Below are positions 4,062 through 38,885 of a stretch of 64,000 nt of DNA, piece after piece (position 1 is the first letter of the stretch; each line of letters opens with the position of its first letter). Source of the DNA: Candidatus Baldrarchaeum yapensis (lineage in GTDB: Archaea; Asgardarchaeota; Baldrarchaeia; Baldrarchaeales; Baldrarchaeaceae); the NCBI GenBank assembly GCA_016840465.1, contig JAEOSH010000006.1, positions 2,886-66,885 of the forward strand, given 5' to 3'. A program made the translations under genes and the position numbers. The notes under the pieces are model-generated. The model made no database searches, was not told the DNA's origin, and worked only from the letters and a program-made list of their open reading frames with translations.

Positions 4062-7000
4062 TTAGGAAAACTTATCCTCTAATAATGCCTCAATTTCTTG
4101 GTATCTCTTCCTCAATTTCTCTATTGTTTCACTTGATGCTCTCCAATAACCCCTTGAATGAGCCTCTAATAATCTTCCGACTATCTTCTGAAACGCCCAC
4201 GGATTTTCCCTCTTTATCCTGTCGGAAACTTCTCGATCAAAGACTATTCTCTCGGCAACCTTATCCCACATCCAGTCCTGAACGCCACCTACCGTCGCTG
4301 CAAGTCCCAGTAGGTATTCCACCCTATCTGCAATCTTTGTTGACCCATTAAAGCCATGTTTGAGCATTTCATCTAGCCAACGCGGATTTAGAAGCCGCGT
4401 GGCTACGCCCCTCCTTATTGCCTCGTCGACATGCTCAACTTTCACTCTTTCTCTCGTACTATCCGCAACTAGAACTAGGGGTTTCTCACCTCTTACCTTC
4501 TCAACGCTCTTCGTCAATCCGCCTAAGAACTCATAATAGTGGTCGAGGTCGGTAATTTCGTAATCGATGCTGTCTCGAATCTGCGCAACTAGGTCCACTC
4601 TAGAGATAAGTTTATTGAAAACATCATTTGCGTCTTTCCCTCTGATGTATTCCCCGTACCCGAATCTCATACTTTCCATATATGCATTCACAAGATCCGC
4701 CTCGCTCCTCCAAGACCCGCTTTCAATGAGTGTGGTCAGCGTAGTTGCATATTCGCCCTCAGGTGGGCCGAATATCCTAATTATCGCATCCTCTCCCAAT
4801 TTCTTATCCTCGAGCGTGTGGGCCTTTACGTAATTTAACTCCGGAGGCTCATCCAAGCTTGCAACTAATTTGAACGCTCTATCAAGAAGTTCAACTATGT
4901 TGTAAAACGTGTCCCTGAAAATTCCACAAATGGTGACAAGAACGTCTATTCGAGGTCTTCCCAATTCCTCTAATGGTATTACTTCCAAGTCACGGATGTA
5001 TATCGACTTCCAGATAGGCCTCACTCCCAATAACCTGAAAATGGCGGCAACGGTCTCCCCTCCCGTCTTCATTGTCTCAAAGCCCCAAAGCACAACACTA
5101 ACAACCTTAGGATAACGGCCATACTTCTCATAATACCTCCTAATGTACTCCTCCGCAATTCGCGCACCGCGCTCCATTGCCACTTCCGTTGGTATATTCG
5201 TGGGGTCAAGCTGGAATACATTGCGCCCGGTTGGAAAGACCTCAGGCGATCGTATAGGATCCCCACCGGGTCCCGGAAGGATGTATTCTCCATTTAATGC
5301 GCGCAGTACGCCTTCAATTTCAGATGACTCTAATACTCTTTCCTTTACTGATTTGGCGTACTCCAATGATGTCCTCATCTCGTTTTTATCGACTCTTCCA
5401 AGTTTAAAACTCTTAATGAGATCGTTTAACGATCTCTGCTCAAAGACGTACATCTTGATAATGTTACGAACGACTTTTTCGATAGCATCCAAAATGTCAG
5501 AATATCTCCTTCCATCAGGTGTCATCAGAGAGGGCTTTTCAAGCAAATCATAGTAATTAAAGCCCATGGACTCAGCAATTATCCTATGGAGGCTCTTAAT
5601 GGTCCCTCTATCGTATCTTGCAACATAAGTCAGATAATCCAAGAGATCGTCCTCGGAAGGCGTCTCGCCAAGCACATGTAGTCCTTTCGGCACCAATGCT
5701 CTTTTATACTCGTAAATTCTGTCATGAATTTTGTCAATGCTATCTCCTAAACCGTATTTTCTTCCCACATCGATGATCTTTTTCGCAATCGTTGCAGCCT
5801 TCTCCTTATCGTATTGTAATGTGTCATGATATTGGTTAAGAAGCCTTTCCAGTTCCAAAATGAAATCATGAGAGCCACTCACCATAACTGGAGGACTACT
5901 ATGTCCTATAATGACCGCATAACTCCTATGCTTTGCAATGGCAGCCTCCGACGAATTGACGACATGGTAGATGTAAATGTTCGGTAGGTCCCCTAGTAGC
6001 AAATCCGGAAAACACTCTTCAGATAGCCCTGCATCCTTCCCCGGCAAAAACTCTAAGGTCCCATGAGTGCCGAAATGTACGACCGCATCTGCTCGAAACT
6101 CCTTCTCTAACCATTTATAAAACGCAATATACTGATGATGCGGCGGCAGATCTCGACTGTGGTATATTTTTGAGGGGTCCTCGTGTACACCTCTCGAAGG
6201 TTGTACTCCTATGAACACATTTCCTAAAATGATCCCCGGAATTATTATCGTGTCTTGGAACACCATTATCTTACCTGGAGGCTCTCCCCATGCCTCTAGA
6301 ACTCTTTTTCGTACATTCTCGGGCAATTCATTAAACCACTTTATGTATTTTTGCTTATCCACTTTAGGCAATCTTCGGAGCGCATCAGCTGTCTGGACCC
6401 ATTCTCCGGAATTTACTGCTCCGCTTCTCAACATCAACTCCTTTAATTCGTCTGCACTTGGAATCTTATCAATAAAGTACCCATGCTCTCTCATCGAAGA
6501 GAGCAGTTTGGATATGCTGGCAAACACGTCGAGATATGCAACCTTTCCGAGGTTTTCCTCGCCGGGCGGATAATTGAATATTATTATGGCAATTTTCTTA
6601 TCCTTGTTCGGCTTTCTCTTTAAGTGAACCCATTTTAGAACTCTTCGTGCCAATTTCCTAATTCTGTCCTCTATTGCTATGTACTCCTCAAGAACAACTC
6701 CCTCCTTCTTAAAATGAACGGGAGCATGTGTAACATGTGGTTCTATTCGCCCATCCAATTCGGGCAAAATTACCGACGTTACCATCTCTATTGGAGGAAC
6801 CCCTGCGCGGGACTCTTTCCATTTCTCTGCAGTTACCGATGATAAATGAATCCCGTGAAGAACGGGCACATTCAACTTTGTCAGCACATCAAATGTAAAT
6901 CTGTGATCCCCACCTACAGGGCCTCCCGCGAACCTGAACCAAAGCAGATCAACTAAAGCATCGATAACGGGTCTGCCATTTCTCAGAAAGTACTTCTCGA

Positions 7001-7826
7001 TCGCAAGATAATACCTCAGATCCTCACAAAAGACTGGTATTACTCCAAGTCCAAGGCGCTCAATCTCCTCGGCGAGGAGCTTAGCGGCGGGTAGAGATTG
7101 ATCATAGTGGTGCCCTCCATAAAACAATATCCCGACAAGAGGTCTATTCCCATGTCTGTACTGCTTGAGGTACTCTTCTGTTGAATCGTATATTTGGCCA
7201 GTGTGGAAGTCCTCTATCCCCATAGGCGGCATAACTTTTGGCTCCGGTATCTCAACATCTATCTTCACTTTGCCATACTCCTTTAACAATAACAGCAGCA
7301 TCGCAACGTAGTTTTCTTCTGAGGGATGCTCATGGCACTTCAATACAAATGCGAAGTTTCGAGCATGCCTAAAGATACCTATAGGAATCTTAGAACCTAA
7401 TTTCTCAAACCTCTCCCTCATTTTAACTATTTTGCCGTAATCTATCTCTCCTCTTCCGAATATTTTCCTGAGAATGGGCTTTTCTCGTAAAGACATAAAC
7501 CTGTCGAGAGAAAAACTTCCCATCCTAGTCAATCTTATCAGCTCAGGCGAGCCACCAACTAGAGTTATTATCGTTTTGTCTTTGGAATTTTTCAATGTTT
7601 CAACTAGCAATTTGCTGGTCCTATCTCCGCCTCTAACGTCAATTAACACTATATCGGCGGATAGCAACTCGTTGACCACCTTATCAGAAGAAAACGCCCC
7701 AGTCTCGATATCATATGCGTTGAAGAACGAAAAGTCCAGTTTTCCACCAGTTATTTTATTAACTTTTTTAACGGCTTCCAAAAGCGCGGGCCGAAACTGA
7801 TACCCTATCATCACAACCTTTACCAT
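4062..7826 (-). CDS. cobN: cobaltochelatase CobN / Mg-chelatase H-subunit family protein
   Basis: A single 1254-aa ORF, the size and architecture typical of CobN/ChlH. It is divergently paired with a ChlD-like AAA+/vWA gene. Confidence 0.85.
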   Translation of the reverse strand: MVKVVMIGYQFRPALLEAVKKVNKITGGKLDFSFFNAYDIETGAFSSDKVVNELLSADIVLIDVRGGDRTSKLLVETLKNSKDKTIITLVGGSPELIRLTRMGSFSLDRFMSLREKPILRKIFGRGEIDYGKIVKMRERFEKLGSKIPIGIFRHARNFAFVLKCHEHPSEENYVAMLLLLLKEYGKVKIDVEIPEPKVMPPMGIEDFHTGQIYDSTEEYLKQYRHGNRPLVGILFYGGHHYDQSLPAAKLLAEEIERLGLGVIPVFCEDLRYYLAIEKYFLRNGRPVIDALVDLLWFRFAGGPVGGDHRFTFDVLTKLNVPVLHGIHLSSVTAEKWKESRAGVPPIEMVTSVILPELDGRIEPHVTHAPVHFKKEGVVLEEYIAIEDRIRKLARRVLKWVHLKRKPNKDKKIAIIIFNYPPGEENLGKVAYLDVFASISKLLSSMREHGYFIDKIPSADELKELMLRSGAVNSGEWVQTADALRRLPKVDKQKYIKWFNELPENVRKRVLEAWGEPPGKIMVFQDTIIIPGIILGNVFIGVQPSRGVHEDPSKIYHSRDLPPHHQYIAFYKWLEKEFRADAVVHFGTHGTLEFLPGKDAGLSEECFPDLLLGDLPNIYIYHVVNSSEAAIAKHRSYAVIIGHSSPPVMVSGSHDFILELERLLNQYHDTLQYDKEKAATIAKKIIDVGRKYGLGDSIDKIHDRIYEYKRALVPKGLHVLGETPSEDDLLDYLTYVARYDRGTIKSLHRIIAESMGFNYYDLLEKPSLMTPDGRRYSDILDAIEKVVRNIIKMYVFEQRSLNDLIKSFKLGRVDKNEMRTSLEYAKSVKERVLESSEIEGVLRALNGEYILPGPGGDPIRSPEVFPTGRNVFQLDPTNIPTEVAMERGARIAEEYIRRYYEKYGRYPKVVSVVLWGFETMKTGGETVAAIFRLLGVRPIWKSIYIRDLEVIPLEELGRPRIDVLVTICGIFRDTFYNIVELLDRAFKLVASLDEPPELNYVKAHTLEDKKLGEDAIIRIFGPPEGEYATTLTTLIESGSWRSEADLVNAYMESMRFGYGEYIRGKDANDVFNKLISRVDLVAQIRDSIDYEITDLDHYYEFLGGLTKSVEKVRGEKPLVLVADSTRERVKVEHVDEAIRRGVATRLLNPRWLDEMLKHGFNGSTKIADRVEYLLGLAATVGGVQDWMWDKVAERIVFDREVSDRIKRENPWAFQKIVGRLLEAHSRGYWRASSETIEKLRKRYQEIEALLEDKFS

Positions 7827-7863
7827 TTAGCAACACCTGCCTGCTCTTACACCATCCGGTAAC

Positions 7864-7871
7864 ACTTATAT
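7864..7871 (+). promoter_or_regulatory. candidate TATA box for the ChlD-like gene, in the divergent cobN/chlD intergenic region
   Basis: 'TTATATAT' lies ~50 nt upstream of the ATG at 7920 in a 93-bp divergent intergenic region. Confidence 0.25.
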
Positions 7872-7919
7872 ATCACTTTTTATTACCCCGATGAGAGGAA
7901 AAAGATCACGGGAGCCGCG

Positions 7920-9920
7920 ATGCCCCACCACGTCAGGCGTTTCGTATTTCCGTTCACCGCGATAGTTGGACAGGAAAAGATGAAGAAAGCGCTCATTCTC
8001 AATGCAATAAACCCAAGAATAGGAGGAGTCCTGATAAGGGGTCAGAAAGGAACCGCAAAATCGACCGCTGTAAGAGCGCTTGCCGACCTCTTACCCGAAA
8101 TATATGTTGTTGAAGGATGTCCGTTCAACTGTAATCCGTTCGATCCCGCCGAGATGTGTGATATCTGCTACGAAAAGTATGAGCGGAGTGAGCAGCTACC
8201 CGCGGTGAAGAGAAAGGTAAGAATTGTGAACTTGCCATTAAATGCCACGGCGGACAGAGTTGTAGGATCACTGGATATAAAGAGAGCAATTAAAGAGGGA
8301 ATAAAGGCTTTAGAACCGGGGCTCCTCGCCGAAGCAAATCGAGGTATCCTTTATATTGATGAAGTAAATCTTCTAGACGACTACGTTGCAGATATACTCC
8401 TAGATGCCGCGGCAAGCGGGGTCAATGTCGTAGAGCGTGAAGGAATATCGGTCGCCCATCCGGCGAAGTTCATTCTCATCGGAACAATGAATCCCGAAGA
8501 GGGCGAACTCCGTCCACAACTCCTTGACAGATTCGGACTACAGGTAGAAGTAGAGGAAATAAGGGACCCCCGACTTAGAGTAGAAATCATAAGAAGGGTC
8601 GAAGAGTTCGAAAACGATCCTTTAAGCTTCCTGAAGAAGTATGAGCATAAACAGAGAGATCTGAGAGATAAAATAGAAAGAGCGCGCGAACTTCTGAAAA
8701 ATGTTGAGATAAGTGAAGATCTCCTCCTAGCAATCGCAGAAATCTGTATAAAACTCGAAGTTGCAAGCCACAGAGCCGAGATAACAGTTACAAGAACAGC
8801 AAAAACTATAGCTGCTTTCGATGGAAGGAAAAATGTGCGCGAGGAGGATATCATTGAAGCCTTGGAACTTGCTCTTCCTCACAGATTAAGAAAACGACCG
8901 TTTGAAAGACCGCAAATAAGGCAAGAGGATATAGAAAAGGTTTCTGAGGAAGTCTTTGGCTCTAAAAAGCTAAGATCAAGAAAGGATTTTGATAGCAACA
9001 ATGACGACCAGGATGAAAAGACTAAGAGAAATTCCAATAATGATCGAAATTTTATCGTATTTGACATTGGAAGTGAACCGACGATAATCCTCCCAGGCAA
9101 CACACCTCTGTGCTCGGGGCCCCGTGTCAGGCGTACAGGAAGAAGATTAAAAGCTAAGGGGAACGGCAAGCGAGGTGTATACGTGTCTTACACAATTCCA
9201 AGGAATGGGGATGTTGACGATATAGCAATAGATGCCACGATAAGAGCCGCCGCGCTAAAAAGTCCCGAAAGGCGCAAATATCGTAATGACGTTGCTGTAA
9301 TCATCGAGGATGAGGACATAAGAGAGAAAATCAGACGGCAAAAACTTCGTTCGCTGATACTTTTAGTCGTAGACGCAAGTGGGTCCATGGCTGCTCTTCG
9401 GAGGATGGAGGCAGCAAAGGGTGCGGCAATGGCAATACTGAGAGATGCATATATCCATAGGGACAAGGTTTGCTTCATAGAATTCCACGGAACCGACGCA
9501 CAAGTGCTCTTACCGCCAACAGACAACCTAGAACTGGCCGCTGAAATTCTAAAGGAGTTACCAACTGGCGGAAAAACTCCCCTTTCCGCTGGGATTGCGA
9601 AGGCGATAGAGGTCATAGAATTGGAGAGCAGAAAGTACGATCTGAGGCCCATAGTAATCATAATAACCGATGGCAAGGCAAATGTCCCATTAGGCATTGG
9701 CAGTAGCATCAAGTGGGAAATAATGACCCTTTCCAGACGATTAAAAGAATTAGGGGCTATCACTGTAGTTGTTGATACCTCACCTCCTCAAATGGACATC
9801 ATGGGGATTCCCAGATACATCAACGAAATTGTGGAAGCAGCATCGGCAAAACTCGTAAAACTTCCCGAACCTTCCGAATCCGCATTATATCAACTCATAA
9901 CCGGAATATCGCGAATGTAG
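7920..9920 (+). CDS. chelatase ChlD/BchD-like subunit (AAA+ ATPase, charged linker, C-terminal vWA domain)
   Basis: N-terminal AAA+ with 'GQKGTAKST' P-loop and '[10 protein letters not shown]' Walker B. An acidic/charged linker '[16 protein letters not shown]' follows. The C-terminal vWA has the MIDAS motif 'LVVDASGSM'. Confidence 0.85.
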
Positions 9921-16535: not shown

Positions 16536-17804
16536 ATGAAGATTTCTCTGCTCGAAAGAGGGAGGCAAGTGGTACTTGATCCAATAAAGACGTGTCAGGT
16601 CGTGGAGCAGAAGCTTAATAACCTGAAGATGAGGGTTAGGACACGTAGGGAAGCGGACCTTTTAGAGGCTATTCGGTTCACTCGCTCAATGAACGACGTG
16701 AGGAGGGTTATAGAGAGCGATACAAGCATAAGTAAGAGGTTCCAAGAGTACGTTCTGCCAGTCGAGCAGGTACTCTTTAAAAGGATAACGGCGGACCCTG
16801 TAAACCCGCTACCTCGAAACGTTCCGCACGTTCGATTGATTGAGAATGTGGAGGAAATACCAGTTATAGGATGCGATACCAGCGAGATAAGACCTTCTGC
16901 ACATTATCTTCCTTTATTTATGCTAATAAACGTTGGAGTATTTGCAATGGGAGCAGAAGAGGGAGAATATTTCTCAGAGAGTGATCCTCACTTTTATACG
17001 TGGGAAGAGCTGACGGCACTGCATCCTCGCAGACTGAGGACTACCCTTAGAATAGACAGTCGGCGCATAGAAGCCCAATGTGAAACTATACTATCGGTGG
17101 TGGACAGAATAAGGGAGTCTGGGAACAGCAAGAGCATCATAGTGTTACTCGATGAAACACTATCCTTAGGCTATCTCGTTGGAAGATCGGCAGAAACTAG
17201 GGAGGAAACGGTAACAGCATTACTTGAAATGATGGGAGAGTTGAAGAAAAAGAATTGCATTCCCGTGGGCGTCTTTTATACAATGAGTGCTGCGCTGACG
17301 GTATCCCTCATCCGGGGAGTTATGTGTAGGAACAAGCCCTCGTGTAGCGTATGCATAGAAGGCGCCCGTTCAGGAGGTAATATTAAAGACCTACCGTGTG
17401 AAAAGTACATGATGCGCGACGTGAAACTCGTGGACTTGCTACTCGATCCGGGATGTAGAACCTTCTGCTTTGAAGTAAAAAATGTGATAACAAGAGCCTT
17501 CTCTTATACCGTGCTTGCCTTCTACCTAAAAGTGTGGAAAAATGACGTACTGAGAGTGGAAATTCCGCAATGGGCATCTGATAAAGTTAATGAGATAGCG
17601 TCCGTAGTTTACTTGCAGTCGATAATGGGCGCAGGATATCCGTACGTGCTCGAGAGGGCTCATGAATACGCTGTTATAAGGTCAGGGGAGAGAGACTGGT
17701 TCATTTCTATGATCTCGCGCGTCCTTCGTGACATCCTCCACATCGACCTTCGGATGAGCCGCAAGGAGATAATGAAAAAGATGCTCGGTGGAGGAGTTGT
17801 ATGA
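16536..17804 (+). CDS. nurA: NurA-like 5'-3' nuclease (DSB end resection)
   Basis: 422 aa with 'IGCDTSEI' as a candidate catalytic Asp motif and a C-terminal 'GYPYVLERAHEYA' (Y…H motif). It is first in an operon with herA, mre11 and rad50, overlapping the next ORF by 4 nt. Confidence 0.6.
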   Translation: MKISLLERGRQVVLDPIKTCQVVEQKLNNLKMRVRTRREADLLEAIRFTRSMNDVRRVIESDTSISKRFQEYVLPVEQVLFKRITADPVNPLPRNVPHVRLIENVEEIPVIGCDTSEIRPSAHYLPLFMLINVGVFAMGAEEGEYFSESDPHFYTWEELTALHPRRLRTTLRIDSRRIEAQCETILSVVDRIRESGNSKSIIVLLDETLSLGYLVGRSAETREETVTALLEMMGELKKKNCIPVGVFYTMSAALTVSLIRGVMCRNKPSCSVCIEGARSGGNIKDLPCEKYMMRDVKLVDLLLDPGCRTFCFEVKNVITRAFSYTVLAFYLKVWKNDVLRVEIPQWASDKVNEIASVVYLQSIMGAGYPYVLERAHEYAVIRSGERDWFISMISRVLRDILHIDLRMSRKEIMKKMLGGGVV

Positions 17805-18457
17805 GCATTTTTGACATGTTAAGAGCCAAGTACTCCAAGCCGGAAATGGCATTCGGGGAGGTAATAGAATCTTCAACAGTGAAATTCGATGTCTGCGCAT
17901 ATGATCATGAGCATACGCCGCAACACGGCGCATTTGTTCTTGTAAATTGTGACCACATACTGGTCATGGGTGTCGTGATACACTCCGAGATGCGTGCGGC
18001 TCCCGGCCTTCCCCGAATCCCTCAGAGACTCAGAATGACCCGTGATGAACTGAGAAGACGGTATCCTGATCTCAGGGACAATATTCTTGACATTTATACG
18101 GCGGTTGTCGTGGGATATTGTTCACGATCCGGCGTCGTACAAAGTCTTCCTCCCGAGAAGCCCCGCATCCACGACCTCGCCTTCATTTTAGATAAGGATC
18201 ACATAATAGAATTTCTAAACCCACACGGCGAGTGCATTGAAATGAACTATCTCCCCCTCCTAACCGTGCCCGTTGCTGCACCCGAAGTTCCCTTCGTCAT
18301 AGAACGTCACCTCAGATTTCTTGCCGAAATCTTAGATCAAAGCTTCCGATCGGAACTATTTAGGGCGCTCTGTACATCGGTTAATGAACATTTTAAAGGT
18401 GATGCGGCAGCTATGTTGCTAAAAATAGGAAGGAAAACCCTATTGGAGGGGGTATAA
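17801..18457 (+). CDS. uncharacterised 218-aa protein inside the nurA–herA–mre11–rad50 operon
   Basis: Its start overlaps the nurA stop (ATGA) and its stop overlaps the herA start (TAATG). There are no recognisable catalytic motifs, and the N-terminus is beta-rich ('EVIESSTVKFDVCAYD…GAFVLVNCDHILVMGVVIH'). Confidence 0.5.
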   Translation: MSIFDMLRAKYSKPEMAFGEVIESSTVKFDVCAYDHEHTPQHGAFVLVNCDHILVMGVVIHSEMRAAPGLPRIPQRLRMTRDELRRRYPDLRDNILDIYTAVVVGYCSRSGVVQSLPPEKPRIHDLAFILDKDHIIEFLNPHGECIEMNYLPLLTVPVAAPEVPFVIERHLRFLAEILDQSFRSELFRALCTSVNEHFKGDAAAMLLKIGRKTLLEGV

Positions 18458-20223
18458 TGAAATTAGAGGAAGAAAAGGACCCCACATTCGCATTCGTCGT
18501 ACAAGGCTCCTTAGATAAGGGAGTTATCGCGCAGCTAAGACGCGGATATCTAAGTGAGGATGTCCAATGTTCTTCTCTTACCACGATCAAGGGACGCAAC
18601 TTTCTCTTCCTAGGGCTCATCTCAAATATCGAGGTTTCTCGAAAGAGCGTCGTAGATGAAACTGTTAGGCATGAAGGTATCGATAAAAGCGCCGATGAGG
18701 TGGAAAGAGAAGCCGTATTGCACGGGTTGATAAACACAGGTGAGGGTCGCCCAGAAATCAGAATAATACCAATAGCTGTGGCGAGGGAAATCGATGGACG
18801 AGTATGTGTGGAGGGCGCGGATACGATACCATACTACATGGCAGAGGTTAAGGTTCCCGATGAGAGCGAAATAAAGGCGTTCTACACCCCGCAAAGGGGT
18901 GAAGGATTCGTAATAGGATATCCCAAGAGCCCAATAGCAAGCCAACAGATATCATCCGGTGTGCTCATGGATCTTGAGGTGCTGGTTCGTGGGACCTTCG
19001 GAATATTCGGAAAAAGTGGGACAGGTAAAACTTTCTTGGGAAACTATCTCGCGTCTGGAATTGTACTATGGAACAAAAAGAATCTCTTCTCCAAGAAGGT
19101 AAAACTCCTAATATTTGACATGCACTCGGAATATGGAACCCAACTTTTCAGCTCCAGGGGAGATACTTACGGTCCAGGAGTTGCAAAAGCATTTCCCGAG
19201 GAGTTCCTAGTATTTTCCCCGGATCACCAATTTGCAAAGGAGCATTCTCTCGAACCCTTGCAGATAAATGCCGGGAATATAACAATAGAAGATCTGGCAG
19301 CAACAGCTGAAGCCTTAGGATTATCAGAAGCATATCTGAGCCACTTGGAAACGTTCAGGCGGATAGCAGAGGATATATTGGATAAATACCGGAGAGAAGC
19401 AAGTAACAGGGGGATTACCAACTGGTTCCAGTTCATAACATCACTCGACGACGAACTTGGTCCTTCATTAACGAATCCACTAGAAGAGAGACTGAGAAGC
19501 ATATCACCAGGTGCAAAATTCGCCTATACCAGCGGAAGGAGCAGGCTTCGGAGATTGAAGAGATACGAGTTCATAAACTGGTTCGGAACGGGAGCAGACT
19601 CAGTAGACACAATAATATCCGAGTTGCTTGATGGAAAACGCAGCGTTGTAATATCGTTTGGAAGATACGGGGATGATAGAACTGCATACATGTTCATAGC
19701 AAACATAGTTGCGCGCAGATTATGGAGAGAATGCGTCGATAGAATAATGAGCGGAAGAGAGCTCCACTACAGGGTTGTAATTTTTATAGAGGAGGCGCAC
19801 AAGTTCCTAGGACCGGATGTCTACTACATGAGCCCGTTCGGCGATATTGCTAGGGAATTGAGAAAACGCGGCGTTATTCTCTGCGTTATCGATCAAACTC
19901 CATCGCAGATATGTGATGACGTTCGTGGAATGTTATGGAACAAATTTGTGATGTGTCTCGAGAACGAAAAGGACATAGAGGCCGCATCTATAGGATTACC
20001 CTTCCCACATCTCTTTAAACCGGTAATCCAGCGCCTACAGCGGCAGGAAGTGCTCGTATTTGGCGAGGCAATAAACGTCCCGGCTGTTGTTAAGGTTCCC
20101 GAATATAAGGAGAGAATTAAGGAAATGAGAGCCCAGTATCTTGAAATAAAGGCAAAGGAAGCGGAAGAAGAAAAGGTGCGGGAAAAAGCATTCGAAGAAC
20201 TCACGGGGCTACCGGTGGGATGA
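18457..20223 (+). CDS. herA: HerA-family hexameric DNA helicase/translocase
   Basis: 588 aa with Walker A 'FGIFGKSGTGKTFL', Walker B 'VVIFIEEAHKF' and a FtsK/HerA-type ATPase core. It lies immediately upstream of mre11. Confidence 0.85.
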   Translation: MKLEEEKDPTFAFVVQGSLDKGVIAQLRRGYLSEDVQCSSLTTIKGRNFLFLGLISNIEVSRKSVVDETVRHEGIDKSADEVEREAVLHGLINTGEGRPEIRIIPIAVAREIDGRVCVEGADTIPYYMAEVKVPDESEIKAFYTPQRGEGFVIGYPKSPIASQQISSGVLMDLEVLVRGTFGIFGKSGTGKTFLGNYLASGIVLWNKKNLFSKKVKLLIFDMHSEYGTQLFSSRGDTYGPGVAKAFPEEFLVFSPDHQFAKEHSLEPLQINAGNITIEDLAATAEALGLSEAYLSHLETFRRIAEDILDKYRREASNRGITNWFQFITSLDDELGPSLTNPLEERLRSISPGAKFAYTSGRSRLRRLKRYEFINWFGTGADSVDTIISELLDGKRSVVISFGRYGDDRTAYMFIANIVARRLWRECVDRIMSGRELHYRVVIFIEEAHKFLGPDVYYMSPFGDIARELRKRGVILCVIDQTPSQICDDVRGMLWNKFVMCLENEKDIEAASIGLPFPHLFKPVIQRLQRQEVLVFGEAINVPAVVKVPEYKERIKEMRAQYLEIKAKEAEEEKVREKAFEELTGLPVG

Positions 20224-20227
20224 GTTC

Positions 20228-21457
20228 ATGGGGTTAAAGATGGTACATACCGGAGATATACATCTGGGAGCCGTAATACGTGGAATGACGTCCGGAACTG
20301 AGGTTTATAAGCGTCGAATAATGGATTTTCTCGAAAACCTGAAAAGAATCGCGGAGTTTTCCGTAAAAAATGAATGCGACTTTTTGTTGATCTCCGGGGA
20401 TATATTCCACTCTCTGCACCCCAGCGCATTCATCCTCGACGAATTCGCGAAAATTCTGAGATTTGTTTCGAATAAAGGCGTAAAGGTCGTTGCAATTCCT
20501 GGAAATCACGACATGCCAAAGACCGCAGGCGTACCGTCCTATCTTGATGCAATATTTGACGCAGGCGTACCCAACTTCTACTACTTCTCACGCGCCGGAA
20601 CGATAACTTTGAGCGGAAGAGATCCCACACGCACGGTAAAATTCATTTGCATACCATATCTTCCGCCGCAAATTGAAAGACAAAAGATGGAGGAAGCATT
20701 AGAAAGATTTGTCAAAAGAGAGGCATCTGACAGAGAAAACTCCGATTACATAGTTGTGTTATCGCACATTTTGGTACATGGTGCAATTCTAGACGCCTAC
20801 GGCAGAAGAATGAAGGAAATGGGAGATGTAGAGTTTTCCACCTCCGCCCTTCTCACGAGTGAAGTAAGCTACGTGGCCCTTGGACATGTGCATCAACACC
20901 AGGAAGTCGCAAAGAAGGTTGTATACTGCGGATCGATAGAAAGAGTCGATTTCGGTGAGGAAGAGGGAGATAAGGGTTTCTATCTAGTAGAGGAAAGGTG
21001 CGGGGATCTTGAGTACGAGTTCATAAAGCTACAAACACGGCCACTAATCACGATTCCTGGGAGAAGATCCGGAATAGGTGGTGAGTATTTGAATCTTGCG
21101 GTCAGCGATCAACCATCCCGCGCGTTGCTTGAGTTTCTGAAAAATGCAAGAATAGAATCCGAATCGATAGTCAGAATAAGGTACCTGATACGGAGTGATC
21201 AAGTGCTTAACCTCAAACCCATAGAGGAGTTCCTAGAAGAGGTAAAGAGAGTCATGCATTATATACTTGACCCGACATATATCACAATTATTAGCCATAA
21301 TGAAGTATATGAAGACATTGCGGCGAAATCCCTGAGAGAATATTTCATAGAATATATTGACGCCCAAAATTTGCCACCAGAGATAAATAAAGAGAAATTG
21401 AAGGAGTTAGGTCTTGAATACATACAAAGGAAGATAGAAGAGGAGGAATACGGATGA
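20228..21457 (+). CDS. mre11: Mre11 DNA double-strand break repair nuclease
   Basis: Calcineurin-like phosphoesterase motifs 'HTGDIHLG', 'LISGDIFH', 'IPGNHD' and 'ALGHVHQ'. It overlaps rad50 by 4 nt. Confidence 0.9.
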   Translation: MGLKMVHTGDIHLGAVIRGMTSGTEVYKRRIMDFLENLKRIAEFSVKNECDFLLISGDIFHSLHPSAFILDEFAKILRFVSNKGVKVVAIPGNHDMPKTAGVPSYLDAIFDAGVPNFYYFSRAGTITLSGRDPTRTVKFICIPYLPPQIERQKMEEALERFVKREASDRENSDYIVVLSHILVHGAILDAYGRRMKEMGDVEFSTSALLTSEVSYVALGHVHQHQEVAKKVVYCGSIERVDFGEEEGDKGFYLVEERCGDLEYEFIKLQTRPLITIPGRRSGIGGEYLNLAVSDQPSRALLEFLKNARIESESIVRIRYLIRSDQVLNLKPIEEFLEEVKRVMHYILDPTYITIISHNEVYEDIAAKSLREYFIEYIDAQNLPPEINKEKLKELGLEYIQRKIEEEEYG

Positions 21458-23946
21458 ATAGTTGGGGATTTGTGCCAGAGAAACTCATTGCCGAGAACTT
21501 CATAACTTACGATAGATTAGAACTGGATTTCACAAAACTGGGAAGAAGAGTCGCCGTACACGGTCCCACAGGTGCGGGTAAAACAACAGCATTCGTGGAT
21601 GCCCTTACTTTCGCCTTATTTGGTGCAGCATACGAGAAATCTGGAGCCCAGTTCAGGGAAAAACTTGCAAAGGAGGCCGGAAGACCGGTAAAGGTAGAGT
21701 TGACATTCAGAGTTGGGGGTGAACGGTATAAAGTTATGAGAATGATAGATAGCAACGGTAAGTACATAAGGGTTGAATTAAGGAGATTGGAAGAGGGCGC
21801 AAAGCCAATAACGTCGCTGAGAGAGGTCAATCAGAGGATAGAGAAACTACTGGGCATGAATTATAAAATATTTCTCAACACGGTCGCAGTAAGGCAGGGC
21901 AATGTTGCTGAACTCCTACATGGCCTTACACCCTCGGAGTTCAGGCAAATGCTCCTCTTAGCTTTTGGAATCGATTTCAGAAAGATACAGGATGCAGTTA
22001 AGGATGACTACAGACAGGCAGAAGTCGAATACTCGAAAATAACTTCTAGGATAGAAGACTTGCGGAAAAAAATAAAGGAGAAAGACAAGGTTTTGAGAGA
22101 CCTGAACAACCTGAGAAAGGAACTCACGAAACTAAATGAAGATATCTCAAAAGTAAGAAGCAAACTCCAAGAAGTAGAACAAAAGCTTCAGGCGGTACAT
22201 GAGAAATTATCCTCCGCACGTCAGGAGTATAAACTTATGGAAAAGGAGTATCAGAACCTCCAGGATAAAAGGAGGCACCTCGAAGAAAAAATGTCGGATA
22301 GAGAGAGGTTTATGAGGGAATTAAGCAAGTTATCCGAAATTGAGGAAGAATTGAAATTGCTAAGAGAGTCGATATCAAAACTGCGAAAAGCGACCGGAAT
22401 CCTTGCTACCATTAAGGAGAAGAGAAGAGCTCTGAGCCGATATGAAAGAGAGTTGAGGGAGTTGGAAAGAAAGGAGAAGGAACTAAATGGGCTGAGAAAA
22501 CGAATTGAAGATTTGTCATGTGAAATATCAGCTTTAGAAAGCACGGTTAAAAAGATTGAGGATATCGAAAGGAAAATAGACGAGAAAAAAGAACTAAAGA
22601 ACAAACTTAGTGGAAAGAGGGAATATCTGGAGAGAAATTTAGCTGAAATAAAGGAAATGAAACAAAGATCATCAAACGGGGCAATAAAATGTCCGCTTTG
22701 TCTCTCCGAATTGTCCCCACAGAAAGTTGAGGAGGTCATGAGAAGCATAACTCATACACTCACGGAACTAAGAAACCAATTGGAATCGATAAGCAGAGAA
22801 TTAGAAGAGCTATCTAGAGAGCGCGAAACTGTTAAGAAAGCTGAGGAAAAGCTAAATACGCTGTACAAAATGCTTATGAGATACGAGGGGCAAGCAAAGT
22901 CTCTTAGCGAATTTGTAAAAAAGAAGGTTGATTTGCAGGGCGAAAGGGAAAAATGTGGACAGGAATTAAAGAAAATGGAGGAAGAACTCTCGAAACTTAT
23001 AGAGGGGATATGCTCTTACGATGAGGTCGAACAAAAGCTTGCAGAATTAGAAGCAAAGGAGCGGGCTCTCGAAGAGAAAGTCAGAAAGATAGCGGAAAGC
23101 AGAGGAAGAATATCAGAGTTGGAAAAGGAGATAGAGAGGTTAAAAAACGAGATTAGAGAATTGGAGCCTCTAATTTCAGAAGAAATGCTGAGAAGAAAGA
23201 AGATCGAGTTAGATGAATTAATGAAAATGGAAGATGAGTTAAAAAGGCGCAAAAAGGAAATAGAGTCAGAACTCGAGGGCCTGCAGGACAGAATGATAAA
23301 GGTCAGCGCGGACGTTAAAGCACTCGAAAGTAAGTTGAAAGAAATAAAAGATGCCGAAAATGAAATAAAAAGTCTCGAAATAGAGGAAAGAAAAGCACGA
23401 GAAAAACTCATTATGCTCAAAGTATTAAAGGAGAAGGTATTTCATGATCAAGGATTCCCGATGTTCCTACTAAGTCGCTTCATTACTAGACTTCAGGATT
23501 ACGCGAACTATTACCTCAGTAGCATTCTTCCAAATTATCAGATCCGCCTCAAGAGGGTAAAAGAGGGAAGACAAGAGAAAATAAGAGCAACGGTCATGGA
23601 TATTTCAAGGGGATATGATCGCCCGTTATATACATACTCCGGCGGTGAAACCGCGATCCTGGGATTTGTACTGAGATTAGCACTAGCAAAAACATTACTA
23701 GAGGTAAAAGGTGCTAAATCGCCGAGAATTCTGATTTTAGATGAGGGATTTAGCTCTGCTAGCGAGGAATATCGTGCCCAATTGATGAAGTTATTAGCAA
23801 CGCTATCCCAAGAGTTCGAAAATATTATTGTCATTTCACACGTTCCTGACATAAAGTTCAGCGAAATATTCGATAGAATTCTCGAAGTTCAGAGAGACAG
23901 AAGTGGAAGTCGCATAAGGGACGTCACCACATCGGTGAAATCGTAG
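21454..23946 (+). CDS. rad50: Rad50 ATPase (SMC-like, with zinc-hook)
   Basis: N-terminal Walker A '[10 protein letters not shown]', a long heptad-rich coiled coil with a central 'CPLC' zinc hook (about 22689-22700), and C-terminal signature/Walker B '[11 protein letters not shown]…LILDEGF'. Confidence 0.9.
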
Positions 23947-24005: not shown

Positions 24006-24868
24006 TTGGAGCAACTAGGAAAAGTCATTAAGGGAAAGCAATATAAGGAATATGCAAAGCATCTGGTGGCAGGCATGAACGAGGATGAACTGTCAGAAAA
24101 GATATTTTCTGCGGCAAAGATAATAGTTAAATCAAAGAGAGTTGTTGCGCTCACTGGCGCGGGGATATCCGTTGAGAGCGGGATTCCTGATTTTAGGGGT
24201 CCTGTTGGACTCTGGAGAGTTTGCAACCCGATATAGCATCCATACACTATTTTCTCCCAAACCCCGAAGGATTTTGGAAAATGGCCAAAAGCTTGGCAAA
24301 AACCCTCTTTAACGCAAAGCCCAATCCCGCGCACATAGCTCTCGCCGAACTAGAGAAAATGGGAAAGCTTCGATGCATAATAACTCAGAACATAGATTCT
24401 CTTCACCAAAAAGCCGGAAGTAAAAATGTCATAGAAATTCATGGAACTGCTCGAACGGCCACTTGCCTCAGTTGCGGGAAAAAGTTTCGGGATGCGGACA
24501 TACTGAAAATGCTGGATGAAGGGCTCTTGGTTCCGGTTTGCGACAGATGCGGAGGGTTGATAAAAGTAGATGCAGTCTTCTTTGGTGAAAATCTCCCTCG
24601 GGACGCCCTTTCAAGGGCCATGGATGAAAGCATACATTGTGACGCAATGTTAGTCGTGGGTTCTTCTTTAGTCGTTTATCCGGCGGCATATATATCTTCC
24701 TCAATTGGCAAAGGAGCACGGGCAAACATAATTGTGGTGAACTTAGAGCCTACATGGTTCGATAGAATTGCGGATGTTGTAATACATGGTAAGGCCGGAG
24801 AAATCCTGCCCGAGCTCGTTGCAAAAGTCAAAGAGTTGTTGCTATCGGATAATAGCAACACAAGATGA
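24006..24868 (+). pseudogene. Sir2-family NAD-dependent protein deacylase (CobB-like), split by a frameshift near 24220-24240
   Basis: The 24006-24236 ORF has '[24 protein letters not shown]'. A different frame, 24221-24868, continues 'PNPAHIALAELEKMG…IITQNIDSLHQKAGS…IEIHG…CLSCGKKF…CDRCGG'. The whole is colinear with the intact paralog at 54643-55449. Confidence 0.6.
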
Positions 24869-33300: not shown

Positions 33301-35640
33301 ATGTACATAACCGATAATATTGCCAAATTGGAAGGACTGTTGAGAAAGTGGGGTATTTCCGAGTTAAGGGAGGTACAACGCAAGGCCATAGACATGGGGC
33401 TACTCAGAGGAGAAAGTTTGATTGTATGTGCGCCAAGTGGCAGTGGTAAGACGTTAATCGGAGAGATAGCACTTGCTCTTAATGCAAATGATGGGATGGG
33501 CGTATATTTAGTGCCCTTTAAGGCTCTTGCTGACGAAAAATTTGAGGATTTCAGGAAGAAGTTTGATTGGAAGAAAGTGGGAATAACGACTGGTGATTAT
33601 GACGTAGTTCCTGAAAGTCTTAGAAACTATGACATTTTAGTCACAACATATGAAAGATTCGACAGTATACTCAGAGCGGATCCTCCCTGGTTGCGAGAAA
33701 TAAAGGTCGTAGTTGTCGATGAAATACACATGATCGGGGACAAAAATAGGGGTCCTCGACTTGAAAGTCTCCTTTTCCGCCTCTCCTCGAAATTAAAAGA
33801 ATTTCAGTTAATAGGTTTAAGCGCTACTATTGCGAATCCGGAAGAAATTGCCGAGTGGCTGGGTTGTAAACTTGTAATGAGCAACAAACGCCCAGTTCCT
33901 CTCAAGTATCAGGTAGTTCTCTGTAAAAACAAAAGAAAGGAGATACTTGAATTATCGAGGAGATGTTTGGAGGAGGGAGGGCAGGCGCTTATCTTTGTTC
34001 TAACTAGGAGAGAGGCGGAAGACGTGGCGGTGATGCTGTCCGAAGTCAGTGAGGAATTTCTGAGTACAGATGATAGAAAAACTCTCGAAAATATTGCTAA
34101 AGACTTAGAAAAGGAGGATATGCCATCGATCTCAAAGAGGCTTGCGATGATTTTGCGGCTCGGCGCGGCGTTTCATCATGCCGGTCTTCCTCATAGGGAT
34201 AGATCCTTAGTTGAGAAATTATTTAGGGATAAGGTGCTTAAGCTGTTGTCTTGTACAACAACGTTGAGTGCAGGGGTGAATTTACCCGCTCGGTACGTGA
34301 TACTAAAAGATGTCACTAGAAAGAGAGGAAAGAAGATATCAACAGCGTTAGGGGCCAACGAGTTTCACCAAATATTAGGCAGGGCCGGCCGTCCCGGCTT
34401 TGATGACATAGGGATAGGTGTGGTATTAAGTTCGTCTCATAGGGAATTGCAATACATAAAGAGAAGGTACTTTTCCGGTGATGGGTTGGATCCAGTATAC
34501 GACAATGTTTTAAGTGCCATGATGCACTTTGATGCGCTTACAGAGCAGGTGCTTCTGCGAATTTTCGAGGAAGAACCCACGAGTATAGACTCTCTAGTGC
34601 AGTACTTCTCTGGGACATTCTGGGGTTGGAAAGTCGGCGGTCGCGAGGCGATTTCAAGAATTTTTTACTCAGAAGCAAAGGACGTTCTCAGAGGACTTAA
34701 GGAGATTTGTATGGATGCCCGCACATTGGAAGTTGACATTTTAGAATTCAACGGCATTTCTGTAAAGGCTCGGGTGCAAAGCGAGTCCTCATCGAAATGG
34801 TATAGGGTTCAAATAGATGCAAGCGGTAATGCGCAGTGTTCATGTCCCGATTTCAAGTTTAGGAGGAGAAAAGAAGGAGAACTCTGTAAGCATCTTGCAA
34901 CTCTAGTAAGATACATTGTTGAAGAGGGGATCGGCGACGCAATACCAGTGGTGCTCGATTATATTCGTATTACAAGAAATGTTGAGGTATCTCCGATATC
35001 TTACTTAAGGATCGGGGGCTTCATCTCATCTTCCCGTGATGGAACCCTTCATTGCACGAAGTTCGGAAAAACCACAATACTCCTCTATATAAAGCCAAAA
35101 ACTGCGCTGTTCCTTAGAGGTGGAATTATTCGCGTCGGAGATCCTTTAGAGAAATATCTTATTGAACTAGCCATACATGCTGCTCACTTAGAGGATAACG
35201 AGAAAATCGGGCCGCGCAGAATGAAAAGGTACGTGGATGCACTGCTTATGTGGATAGATGAATATCGAGAATCGGAGATTTGCGATAGTTGTAAAATAGA
35301 TCCGGGAGATTTCCAAATGCTCAGGGATAGAGCAACATGGATGATGCATTCGATCTCCATACTGGCATCACTCTTTAATAGGGGGAACGTTGCAGAGACC
35401 GCAAGAAAACTGGAGGAGAGGTTGAAACACGGCGTCAGGGAGGAGTTATTGCCAATATTAAGAATGAGAGTCGAGGGCCTCGGTAGGGTGAGGGCAAGGA
35501 TACTTTTCAATGCAGGGTTCAAAACCCCGGAGGATCTCAAGAATGCAACCTTAGAGACTCTTACAAGGTTGCCGAGCATAGGCAAGAATCTCGCGAGCAG
35601 AATACTCAGCCGATTGAAGCATAATACCATGGAACATTGA
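33301..35640 (+). CDS. Ski2/Hel308-like superfamily-2 DNA helicase with an embedded SWIM zinc finger and C-terminal HhH
   Basis: Motif I 'CAPSGSGKT', motif II 'DEIHMIGD', motif VI 'QILGRAGRPGFD', the SWIM pattern 'CSCPDFKFRRRKEGELCKH' (CxCx14CxH) and a C-terminal 'LTRLPSIGKNLASRIL' helix-hairpin-helix. Confidence 0.8.
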   Translation: MYITDNIAKLEGLLRKWGISELREVQRKAIDMGLLRGESLIVCAPSGSGKTLIGEIALALNANDGMGVYLVPFKALADEKFEDFRKKFDWKKVGITTGDYDVVPESLRNYDILVTTYERFDSILRADPPWLREIKVVVVDEIHMIGDKNRGPRLESLLFRLSSKLKEFQLIGLSATIANPEEIAEWLGCKLVMSNKRPVPLKYQVVLCKNKRKEILELSRRCLEEGGQALIFVLTRREAEDVAVMLSEVSEEFLSTDDRKTLENIAKDLEKEDMPSISKRLAMILRLGAAFHHAGLPHRDRSLVEKLFRDKVLKLLSCTTTLSAGVNLPARYVILKDVTRKRGKKISTALGANEFHQILGRAGRPGFDDIGIGVVLSSSHRELQYIKRRYFSGDGLDPVYDNVLSAMMHFDALTEQVLLRIFEEEPTSIDSLVQYFSGTFWGWKVGGREAISRIFYSEAKDVLRGLKEICMDARTLEVDILEFNGISVKARVQSESSSKWYRVQIDASGNAQCSCPDFKFRRRKEGELCKHLATLVRYIVEEGIGDAIPVVLDYIRITRNVEVSPISYLRIGGFISSSRDGTLHCTKFGKTTILLYIKPKTALFLRGGIIRVGDPLEKYLIELAIHAAHLEDNEKIGPRRMKRYVDALLMWIDEYRESEICDSCKIDPGDFQMLRDRATWMMHSISILASLFNRGNVAETARKLEERLKHGVREELLPILRMRVEGLGRVRARILFNAGFKTPEDLKNATLETLTRLPSIGKNLASRILSRLKHNTMEH

Positions 35641-37298: not shown

Positions 37299-38885
37299 TT
37301 GTCCTACCTGTTACCAGTGACGGGCGAGGACTTCTTCGATCGGGAGCGAGAACTGGAGATCTTGGAAAGTGGGAAGAATATAGCACTTATAGGACCTAGA
37401 AAGTCGGGAAAGACATCTATAATATTTGAATTTGTACGAAGACATCCCGAGAAGAGAATTGCTTACGTGTATGTTCTTTTCCAGGAAGACATCAATAGCT
37501 TAATTTCAAGAATGGCAAGATCGGTGCTAATGGTAATACTAAGAGTAAGGGATGAAGTGCCGGCGCTTGATGATCTGATATCCGCAGCTATGGACAAGGT
37601 GCCGGAAATATCGGCTCTCCTATATAATCTTATGCGACATATCAGGAAGCAAAGACATGAGGAGGCTCTCGAGGCATTAGCTAATGTTTGCGAGAAAACC
37701 GGAACCGTAATCGCCATAGATGAGTTTCAGAACGTTTTTCAATTAGAGAAGTTCGTAGATATTCTGCGCATGATCTTACTCAAGTATAGAAAGGTACAAT
37801 GGATAATAACTGGATCCAGCATAGGAATCATGAAGGAACTGCTCATGGAACCATCATCTCCCCTTTTTGGGCACTTTGAGGTCGTATGGGTCGGCGCATT
37901 TGATATGCCCACGGCTTCAGAGTTTCTGGAGTTCTTACTAAGGCGTACCCAATTTTCGATGCCACCCGATGTGAAACAATACATTCTTGCAATTTCAGGA
38001 GGCTTCCCATTCTACATCTCAATCATTGTCTCAAAGTCCGTAGAGAAAGCCAAAACCAAACGAAAAGGGAAAATAGTCCCTTGGAGCGATGTCATGGAAA
38101 CCTTAGAGGAAGAATTGTGCCATCCGGAGGGCACTCTGTACAGGCATTTTATAGAAACTCTAGAGAAGGGTATGAAACGAAGAAATGTGGGGAAATATAT
38201 AGACGTACTTTACTGGATCGCAAAAGGAGCGTCAGATTTAACGACCATATCCAAAAACACAGGATTCAGCCCGCAGCACTGTCTGAAAATACTCAGATTT
38301 CTCGAAAAAAGCATGTTAATAGAGAGAGTGGGGGATAGTTACTTTCTGAAGGACCCTCTCATGGACATATGGCTCAAGAGAATATATGAGTTGATGAGCC
38401 GAGAATACTCCCCGGTAAGGGACTTTACACAAATAAAACTGATGTTAAAAGAGTATTTGGACGAATTGAGAAAGCAGATTTCGATAGGTGCGGAGGCAAG
38501 GATCAGAGAATTGCTTAGAGCATTCGATGGAAGAAGGAAGATACCAATAGCTGGAGAAATTGTAAGGACCCCAACATTTCAAATGGTGTCGAGGATTACA
38601 TGGAATGGTAATGAAATAGATGTTCTCGCAATCGGGTCCGAGGTGTGGGTTTTAGAAGTAAAAACCGGGTCTGTGAAATATGAAGATCTGAAAACCTTCG
38701 CTAGGAAAATAGATGACGCGATAAAATCCGGAGTTATTAAGCGTGTTGACAGAAGAATACTCGCATGCCTCGGTGATATTAAAGAGAATCTGGTAACAGA
38801 AGCAGATAAGCTCGGTATCAAGATTTGGAGAAAAGAGGAGATTAACAAAGCCATGCGGATTTTCGGTTATTATCCATTCCTGTAA
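37299..38885 (+). CDS. Arch-ATPase (Orc/Cdc6-related AAA+) fused to a C-terminal DUF234-type PD-(D/E)xK nuclease-like domain
   Basis: Walker A 'LIGPRKSGKTSI', Walker B 'VIAIDEFQ', and a C-terminal 'NEIDVLAIGSEVWVLEVKTG' (D…ExK). It has a non-ATG (TTG/GTG) start and is paralogous to the 60475-61896 gene. Confidence 0.75.
   Translation: MSYLLPVTGEDFFDRERELEILESGKNIALIGPRKSGKTSIIFEFVRRHPEKRIAYVYVLFQEDINSLISRMARSVLMVILRVRDEVPALDDLISAAMDKVPEISALLYNLMRHIRKQRHEEALEALANVCEKTGTVIAIDEFQNVFQLEKFVDILRMILLKYRKVQWIITGSSIGIMKELLMEPSSPLFGHFEVVWVGAFDMPTASEFLEFLLRRTQFSMPPDVKQYILAISGGFPFYISIIVSKSVEKAKTKRKGKIVPWSDVMETLEEELCHPEGTLYRHFIETLEKGMKRRNVGKYIDVLYWIAKGASDLTTISKNTGFSPQHCLKILRFLEKSMLIERVGDSYFLKDPLMDIWLKRIYELMSREYSPVRDFTQIKLMLKEYLDELRKQISIGAEARIRELLRAFDGRRKIPIAGEIVRTPTFQMVSRITWNGNEIDVLAIGSEVWVLEVKTGSVKYEDLKTFARKIDDAIKSGVIKRVDRRILACLGDIKENLVTEADKLGIKIWRKEEINKAMRIFGYYPFL

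Follow-up and report, generated by a model that had tools for sequence, protein, structure and literature searches.

A Hel308-like helicase of Asgard archaea with a predicted SWIM zinc finger nested in its winged-helix domain

The window analyzed here is a 64,000-nucleotide stretch of contig JAEOSH010000006.1 from Candidatus Baldrarchaeum yapensis, in which a complete open reading frame (ORF) of 779 amino acids (aa) occupies positions 33301..35640 of the + strand. Its product, a superfamily 2 (SF2) helicase, is placed by its sequence and by an AlphaFold2 (AF2) model in the Hel308/Hjm branch of the Ski2-like helicases. The winged-helix (WH) domain of this protein is interrupted by an insert that sequence and structure prediction identify as a true SWIM domain, putatively zinc-binding, and the SWIM-in-WH layout, as judged from sequence comparisons, marks a helicase clade so far found only in Asgard archaea. 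Taken together, the results make it likely that the protein is an active Hel308-like helicase of an Asgard-only clade, with the SWIM module acting as a docking platform. Helicases of the Hel308/HELQ type are central to fork rescue and recombination control, and eukaryotes have no closer known relatives than the Asgard archaea; the family described here suggests that the Asgard repertoire of repair or RNA helicases departs from the model-archaeon picture.

Domain layout and nature of the inserted module

The reading frame lies exactly where the original prediction, made from the bare sequence, had placed it. The 779-aa product has a 100% identical counterpart at NCBI, assigned to a Candidatus Baldrarchaeia metagenome-assembled genome (MAG), an Asgard archaeon. 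The contig bearing the gene was recovered in assemblies of several samples. All SF2 motif strings named in that prediction occur in the product (CAPSGSGKT at aa 43-51, DEIHMIGD at 140-147, and QILGRAGRPGFD at 357-368), and motifs I, II, III, and VI are intact across the two RecA-like domains. The C-terminal helix-hairpin-helix (HhH) that it proposed was likewise recovered (Pfam HHH_5, aa 723-773, E-value (E) 1.4e-11). The features of the gene, in window coordinates, are as follows.

33301..35640, +: complete ORF, 779 aa, ATG start, Hel308-type SF2 helicase with embedded SWIM module
33370..33846, +: RecA1 / DEAD domain, aa 24-182 (Pfam PF00270, E 2.7e-31)
33439-33453, +: motif I, GSGKT, aa 47-51 (motif position)
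33718-33729, +: motif II, DEIH, aa 140-143 (motif position)
Within RecA1, +: motif III, SAT, aa 174-176 (motif position)
34144..34398, +: RecA2 / Helicase_C core, aa 282-366 (Pfam PF00271, E 1.9e-10)
34369-34392, +: motif VI, QILGRAGR, aa 357-364 (motif position)
34513..34638, +: N-terminal part of WH domain 3, aa ~405-446 (aligns to Hjm 406-445; AF2)
34639..34986, +: inserted SWIM module, aa ~447-562 (AF2; unalignable to solved Hel308)
34801-34911, +: Pfam SWIM core, aa 501-537 (PF04434)
34837..34893, +: putative zinc-ligand signature C513-x-C515-x13-C529-x-H531, CSCPDFKFRRRKEGELCKH (Pfam PF04434; invariant columns)
34987..35058, +: C-terminal part of WH domain 3, aa ~563-586, ISYLRIGGFI...CTKFG (AF2)
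35059..35436, +: ratchet domain 4, aa ~587-712 (Helicase_dom4_arc at 647-711, E 5.2e-16; aligns to Hjm 576-699)
35467..35619, +: HhH domain 5, aa 723-773 (Pfam HHH_5; aligned to the Hjm/Hel308 C-terminus)

The finger had been proposed to sit after the helicase core and ahead of the HhH domain. This holds as a statement of position, but the module does not occupy a linker joining the two: the structure prediction that had been suggested for locating it, once run, placed it inside WH domain 3 and ahead of ratchet domain 4. In the AF2 model, the N-terminal part of the WH domain contributes helices 410-424, 429-437, and 440-445, with a conserved TFWGW at its end. The module then opens with two helices (448-456 and 462-470), followed by four strands (478-483, 487-493, 500-506, and 511-513), the last of which leads into C513-x-C515 and a short helix (516-520). 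A long helix (530-541) begins at C529-x-H531 and is followed by helix 545-559, after which the WH domain resumes with helix 565-571 and the beta-wing (575-577 / 583-585). L569, G573, and G589, in and just beyond this resumed part, are conserved throughout alignments of the SWIM-helicase family, and the ratchet domain includes a conserved PGD motif (G669, D670) and a ratchet-type helix (668-691).

The insertion can be measured directly. From T439 (of TFW) to G573 (of GFI), the present protein spans 135 aa and every SWIM-bearing relative 125-169 aa, whereas canonical Hel308 from TACK, Thermoplasmata, and DPANN covers the same interval in 29-33 aa. This enlarged spacing indicates an insertion of ~100 aa inside WH domain 3. 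It follows WH helix 2 and precedes the unit formed by helix 3 and the wing. Two loci from Poseidoniaceae / 'Methanobacteriota' MAGs (L047, 3620-6043, and L059, 6001-8364) carry a different insertion of ~75 aa, devoid of Cys, at the same WH position. Their helix 2-wing spacing is 107-108 aa, and that of Methanothermococcus is 52-60 aa (20-30 extra residues). The loop between WH helices 2 and 3 seems to be a hot spot for insertions among Hel308-like helicases.

That the insert is a textbook SWIM, as originally claimed, is borne out by several lines of evidence. The string CSCPDFKFRRRKEGELCKH is present at aa 513-531, and the Pfam SWIM model PF04434 scores 27.7 bits in the full protein (E 2e-6; gathering cutoff 19.6) and 31.7 bits when the insert is scanned alone (E 1.1e-7). 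Thirteen residues separate the ligand pairs, within the 6-16 typical of SWIM domains (PMC5727457). A chance occurrence was rejected, given that the pattern CxCx(5-40)CxH arose in 0.2% of 20,000 composition-preserving shuffles of the same protein and that the ligand columns are invariant. Two observations had been named as telling against a zinc finger, namely a lack of conservation among orthologs and a failure to fold in structure prediction, and neither was made. C513, C515, C529, and H531 are invariant in 10/10 and 52/52 aligned homologs, and CxC-x(8-21)-CxH stands at the equivalent position in 120/120 best database matches. Within the insert only these four residues are invariant, with F505 and G510 nearly so; the hydrophobic core is kept, and the surface residues are weakly conserved over the family.

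Residues 462-562, modeled alone with AF2, gave an autonomous predicted fold with a mean predicted local distance difference test score (pLDDT) of 88.6 and a predicted template modeling score (pTM) of 0.81. Foldseek comparison of the insert model with BFVD returned predictions annotated as "SWIM-type domain-containing protein," the best from an uncultured Caudovirales phage (E 6.5e-4, template modeling (TM) score 0.59/0.60, root-mean-square deviation 2.9 over 82 columns) and the next from Bacillus phage SP-15 and Rhodococcus phage Finch. At its weak end, an insert profile also retrieved the small stand-alone proteins P0162, P0167, and P0169, which are themselves above the Pfam SWIM cutoff.

Affinity, distribution, and diversity of the helicase family

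The likeness to Hel308/Hjm that had been proposed was confirmed by both sequence and fold. By sequence, the nearest solved structures are those of Pyrococcus Hjm (2zj2, E 2.5e-103) and Hel308 (2p6r and 2va8, to E 3.5e-84). They align in two blocks, residues 9-444 and 647-772 of the query, leaving residues 445-646 unaligned; when canonical Sulfolobales Hel308 is the query, the alignment to them is one unbroken block. The whole-protein AF2 model, built on a 52-sequence alignment (pLDDT 89.5, pTM 0.87), superposes on the solved relatives with a TM score of ~0.8: Foldseek ranked Hjm 2zj8 at the top (E 7e-44, TM 0.81, target-normalized), with Hel308 next and then the helicase domain of PolQ and Brr2.

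Other affiliations within the Ski2-like helicases were considered and set aside. The core scores 286 bits with crenarchaeal Hel308, 284 with SLH1, 283 with ASCC3, 261 with Brr2, and 140 with PolQ. Canonical Sulfolobales Hel308 scores likewise (ASCC3 280, Brr2 253, SLH1 226, PolQ 180), and a special affinity to eukaryotic Brr2, ASCC3, Slh1, or PolQ is therefore unsupported; since similarity to ASCC3, Brr2, and SLH1 is no higher than for the canonical crenarchaeal protein, and that to PolQ is lower, no particular eukaryotic descendant is indicated. A helicase of Brr2/ASCC3 type was also rejected, as Sec63 (WH, ratchet, and FN3) gives no Pfam match at E <= 1 and the C-terminus is an HhH domain. 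The SWIM helicase scores 183 bits against 7ujb, a DEAD/DEAH-box RNA helicase that we take to be an ASH-Ski2 structure, versus 350 bits against Hjm. ASH-Ski2 helicases are archaeal, carry an N-terminal domain with four conserved cysteines, and occur in Asgard archaea, according to a 2024 survey of archaeal Ski2-like helicases (PMC10946056). Membership in this group (COG1202) was rejected: the present protein has no such N-terminal domain, its core starting at aa ~20 and its first Cys being C43, inside motif I, and sequences of ASH type cluster apart.

The original prediction also called for a census of domain architectures and raised the prospect of a distinct subfamily. Both led to a single SWIM clade in which every named member is from an Asgard archaeon. 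A one-off fusion in a Baldrarchaeia MAG was rejected, the motif being present in 120/120 best matches and in at least 31 loci of a GTDB scan. That scan took one genome per species, and its counts apply to the 80 loci listed. The SWIM motif is intact in 31/80 of these, which come from Promethearchaeota/Loki, Hermod, Jord, and Thor lineages or are unclassified ("uncultured archaeon"). Locus L024 is apparently a further member, its contig ending before the motif position. One of the 31, L073 of Thorarchaeota MFD04408.bin.2.157 (5941..8188), is frameshifted (frame 0, 5941-6888; frame 1, 6749-8188), reflecting either an assembly error or a pseudogene. No SWIM was found in the listed Thermoplasmata, Desulfurococcales, Sulfolobales, Methanothermococcus, or Methanobacterium loci, nor in the listed Thermococci, Poseidoniia, DPANN, or any other TACK loci.

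Further members carry Hod, Njord, Heimdall, and Ran database names, so the named lineages overall are Baldr, Loki/Promethearchaeota, Hermod, Hod, Njord, Jord, Thor, Heimdall, and Ran. In a neighbor-joining tree, the SWIM-bearing sequences form one clade apart from canonical Hel308; the clade of ASH-Ski2 type, which takes in the Heimdall locus L079, also stands apart. Searching 1.84 billion representatives with the insert profile returned 53 clusters at E <= 1e-3, in which nearly all full-length matches are 690-1112 aa long, with the module at residues ~470-640. As nearly all of the 53 clusters share the same architecture, the extended SWIM module appears essentially confined to the Asgard Hel308-like family.

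The family is diverse. The long Loki/Hermod/Hod forms (~810-860 aa) have an acidic spacer of 19-21 residues and an extra insertion in RecA2, which lies between motifs V and VI (KKYxTSGxNIKNFxGxxENGDGFSYF; for example, aa ~385-415 of P0005, alignment columns 386-410). Short Jord/Thor forms (~730-745 aa) are without an HhH domain, a second type of 724 aa occurs in Hod and Loki MAGs, and forms of 907-1112 aa bear one more insertion. A metagenomic subgroup (P0148, P0135, P0139, P0133, P0130, P0140, and P0152) combines a classic SWIM, CSCESWKYQGIRKHRLCKH, with a degenerate Walker A motif; in P0148, LLITYDYDEAYQ replaces GSGKT and Pfam DEAD is unmatched. Judging by these sequences, members of the subgroup may be catalytically dead pseudo-helicases.

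Literature searches joining SWIM with Hel308, Ski2, Asgard, or archaeal helicases returned nothing relevant. No SWIM or zinc module in Hel308 is mentioned in the text of the 2024 survey (PMC10946056) or in a 2026 review of Hel308/HELQ (PMC13623763). Automated Pfam annotation already marks SWIM on the NCBI copy of the helicase. The SWIM-in-WH architecture thus appears undescribed at the level of the family, though latent in databases. The survey reports Hel308 as missing from 13/15 Lokiarchaeota genomes, inclusion having called for >=60% contiguous coverage of the COG profile (PMC10946056). This rule, applied to COG1204, could have excluded the Loki proteins, which have two insertions, and could be why Hel308 was reported absent from most Lokiarchaeota.

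Proposed role of the module and genomic surroundings

An active helicase of this kind would translocate 3' to 5' on single-stranded DNA, driven by ATP and with the strand threaded past the ratchet helix, as in Hel308; its targets would be stalled forks or recombination intermediates. The SWIM module would provide a zinc-stabilized, solvent-exposed platform at the periphery that recruits a partner protein or helps to select the substrate, in parallel with the WH arch of Mtr4/Ski2 and with the SWIM interface of Shu2/SWS1 with Rad51-paralog-like subunits. An adaptor role is favored by the WH-arch precedent, by the protein interface of Shu2, and by the poorly conserved, charge-variable loop of the module. 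The arch of Mtr4 and Ski2 is a WH-domain insertion, as described in the survey (PMC10946056), and the SWIM of Shu2 forms the interface with the Rad51-like Shu1 in a Shu1-Shu2 pair that does not bind DNA (PMC5727457). Between clades, the net charge of the loop separating the ligand pairs runs from +5 (P0002, Baldr-like) down to -5 (Hod), which argues that this loop is not a conserved DNA-binding surface; because it varies by lineage, the partners may differ by lineage as well. A predicted zinc-finger module sits in the substrate-recognition WH domain, the kind of site that bears the adaptor arch of Mtr4/Ski2, and four ligands together with a cleanly deletable module offer a direct handle on what recruits or regulates the helicase.

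Several results pull the other way. The NCBIfam Hel308 equivalogs are the best family matches, yet all score far under their cutoffs (PRK02362, 483.5/887; PRK00254, 415/1216; helicase_Hel308, 377.7/1200; PRK01172, 370/891), which makes the protein Hel308-like but divergent and leaves strict functional equivalence to Hel308 unsupported. Pfam SWIM is found in just 5/21 family insert segments at E <= 1, and the structural support for the SWIM fold compares one predicted model with another. Foldseek searches of the PDB with the insert gave no significant solved-structure neighbor (the best was RnlA, E 0.095), and a sequence-profile search of the PDB with the insert gave nothing at E <= 10, including no Shu2/SWS1 chain. 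The spacer of the present protein is basic (FKFRRRKEGEL, net +2), so a lineage-specific contact with DNA is possible. Finally, the contexts of the window, P0002, and P0035, when compared, revealed no conserved gene neighborhood or operon partner.

The basic spacer is one argument for a possible but doubtful alternative, in which the SWIM module mainly binds nucleic acid and enlarges the WH surface for branch points or duplex arms of forks and D-loops. The WH of Hel308 has been described as a substrate-recognition, DNA-binding domain (review PMC13623763, citing Northall 2017), SWIM was first predicted to be DNA-binding or protein-interacting (quoted in PMC5727457), and the spacer is basic not only here (+2) but also in the closest homolog, P0002 (+5), and in Jord, Njord, Ran, and the 724-aa Hod/Loki type (+2 to +3). 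The Loki/Hermod/Hod members, which make up the largest subgroup, instead have an acidic and aromatic spacer (SDNFANDEFSFEF, -2 to -5), and that of Heimdall is neutral; the conservation of the insert is limited to the four zinc ligands, with F505 and G510 close behind, and the solved Shu2 SWIM does not bind DNA (PMC5727457). It is unlikely that the clade instead comprises RNA helicases resembling Brr2/ASCC3/Slh1 and engaged in ribosome or RNA quality control, with SWIM as an adaptor to RNA-processing or ribosome-associated factors. The near-equal core scores with crenarchaeal Hel308 (286), SLH1 (284), ASCC3 (283), and Brr2 (261), as against PolQ (140), would suit this idea, as would the missed equivalog cutoffs and the fact that Mtr4 and Ski2, both RNA helicases, characteristically carry an arch inserted in the WH domain (PMC10946056); the like scores of canonical Sulfolobales Hel308, however, show that the pattern is not specific to the clade. 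Neither Sec63 nor the arch is matched in Pfam, whereas the protein does have HhH domain 5, as DNA-acting Hel308 typically does, and the top matches in sequence and fold are Hjm and Hel308. Asgard archaea, moreover, have a separate ASH-Ski2 RNA helicase (PMC10946056; locus L079).

A neutral insertion fixed at a permissive loop, leaving the insert an inert, zinc-stabilized decoration, is very unlikely. The same WH loop does accept unrelated insertions (~75 aa without Cys in L047 and L059, and 20-30 residues in Methanothermococcus), and the surface of the insert is poorly conserved family-wide; yet the module and its four ligands are kept without exception over at least nine Asgard lineages and several paralogous sublineages at ~35% overall identity. 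The spacer is, in addition, strongly conserved within Loki/Hermod/Hod (NGISDNFxxxEFxFEFCDH), which points to selection on the module surface. A more ambitious version of the docking-platform reading would make the SWIM helicase the ancestral and mostly sole Hel308 of Asgard archaea, its SWIM docking RadA paralogs or other recombination mediators, so that one prokaryotic polypeptide would be the precursor of two partnerships of eukaryotes, that of HELQ with the RAD51-paralog complex BCDX2 and that of the SWIM protein SWS1/Shu2 with RAD51 paralogs. We regard this as highly improbable; if true, it would explain the absence of Hel308 reported for 13/15 Lokiarchaeota genomes in the survey (PMC10946056).

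A complete archaeal cluster for end resection at double-strand breaks lies in the window at 16536..23946 (+), ~9.4 kb upstream of the helicase gene and on the same strand. Its genes are as follows.

16536-17804, +: NurA
18457-20223, +: HerA/DUF87
20228-21457, +: Mre11-like phosphoesterase
21454-23946, +: Rad50

Genes for SIR2, TauE, an ABC transporter, a membrane protein, and TrkA intervene between this cluster and the helicase, and NurA-HerA-Mre11-Rad50 was rejected as an operon partner given these unrelated genes. The SIR2-family deacetylase gene (24006..24868, +) falls into two ORFs that overlap and lie in different frames, the motif-bearing 24006-24236 and, with the remainder of the gene, 24221-24868. 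The split recurs in three independent assemblies (L081-L083), and this recurrence leaves either a real frameshift/pseudogene or a shared assembly error. Closer to the helicase are a divergent upstream neighbor encoding a 240-aa AF_2141 family protein (PF27374; 32344..33066, -) and, two genes downstream, a gene for a 528-aa archaeal ATPase (PF01637 ATPase_2; 37299..38885, +); neither is conserved beside the homologs examined. Genes for small GTPases of Arf/Gtr1-RagA type, which are Asgard eukaryotic-signature proteins, occur near P0002 (L084, 11022-11939) and P0035 (L085, 6651-7250). They differ in position and orientation between the two, and none adjoins the helicase of the window.

Comparison with known systems

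SWIM domains (PF04434) are hosted by bacterial SNF2 ATPases, MuDR/FAR1 transposase-derived proteins, MEKK1, and Shu2/SWS1. The present module shares with them the CxCx13CxH signature with a spacer of usual length and a topology of beta-sheet followed by helix. It differs in its host, a Hel308-type helicase, and in being nested in a WH domain with two extra helices on each side. Shu2/SWS1 proteins reportedly have an extended motif, CxC...CxHxxA, with an invariant Ala, which Godin et al. are said to have described in 2015. A SWIM of this type was considered and rejected: the Ala of the present protein is at +2 (C529-K-H531-L-A-T) rather than +3 and is unconserved over the family, and no Shu2/SWS1 chain was matched in the sequence-profile search of the PDB.

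In Mtr4 and Ski2, the arch (stalk/KOW) serves as an adaptor and as a platform for docking substrates. Like the SWIM module, it is an accessory element lodged within the WH domain of a Ski2-like helicase (PMC10946056, Figure 1 legend). The likeness holds at the level of the WH domain: the arch has an unrelated fold, its family PF13234 is unmatched here, and the present module is a predicted zinc finger. Mtr4 and Ski2 are also RNA helicases without an HhH domain. ASH-Ski2 helicases offer a second parallel, being archaeal Ski2-like helicases with a Cys-based zinc module that likewise occur in Asgard archaea (PMC10946056). Their zinc finger, unlike the one described here, is N-terminal and built on two CxxC pairs (L070 and L078); L079 has one CxxC in its first 150 aa.

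The closest comparison is with Hel308 and Hjm themselves. The SWIM helicases have the same five-domain order of RecA1, RecA2, WH, ratchet, and HhH, together with all of the SF2 motifs. They differ in the ~100-aa SWIM insertion within the WH domain and in a divergent first half of the ratchet domain, where the Pfam dom4 model matches at profile positions 61-125 only, and they form a separate clade.

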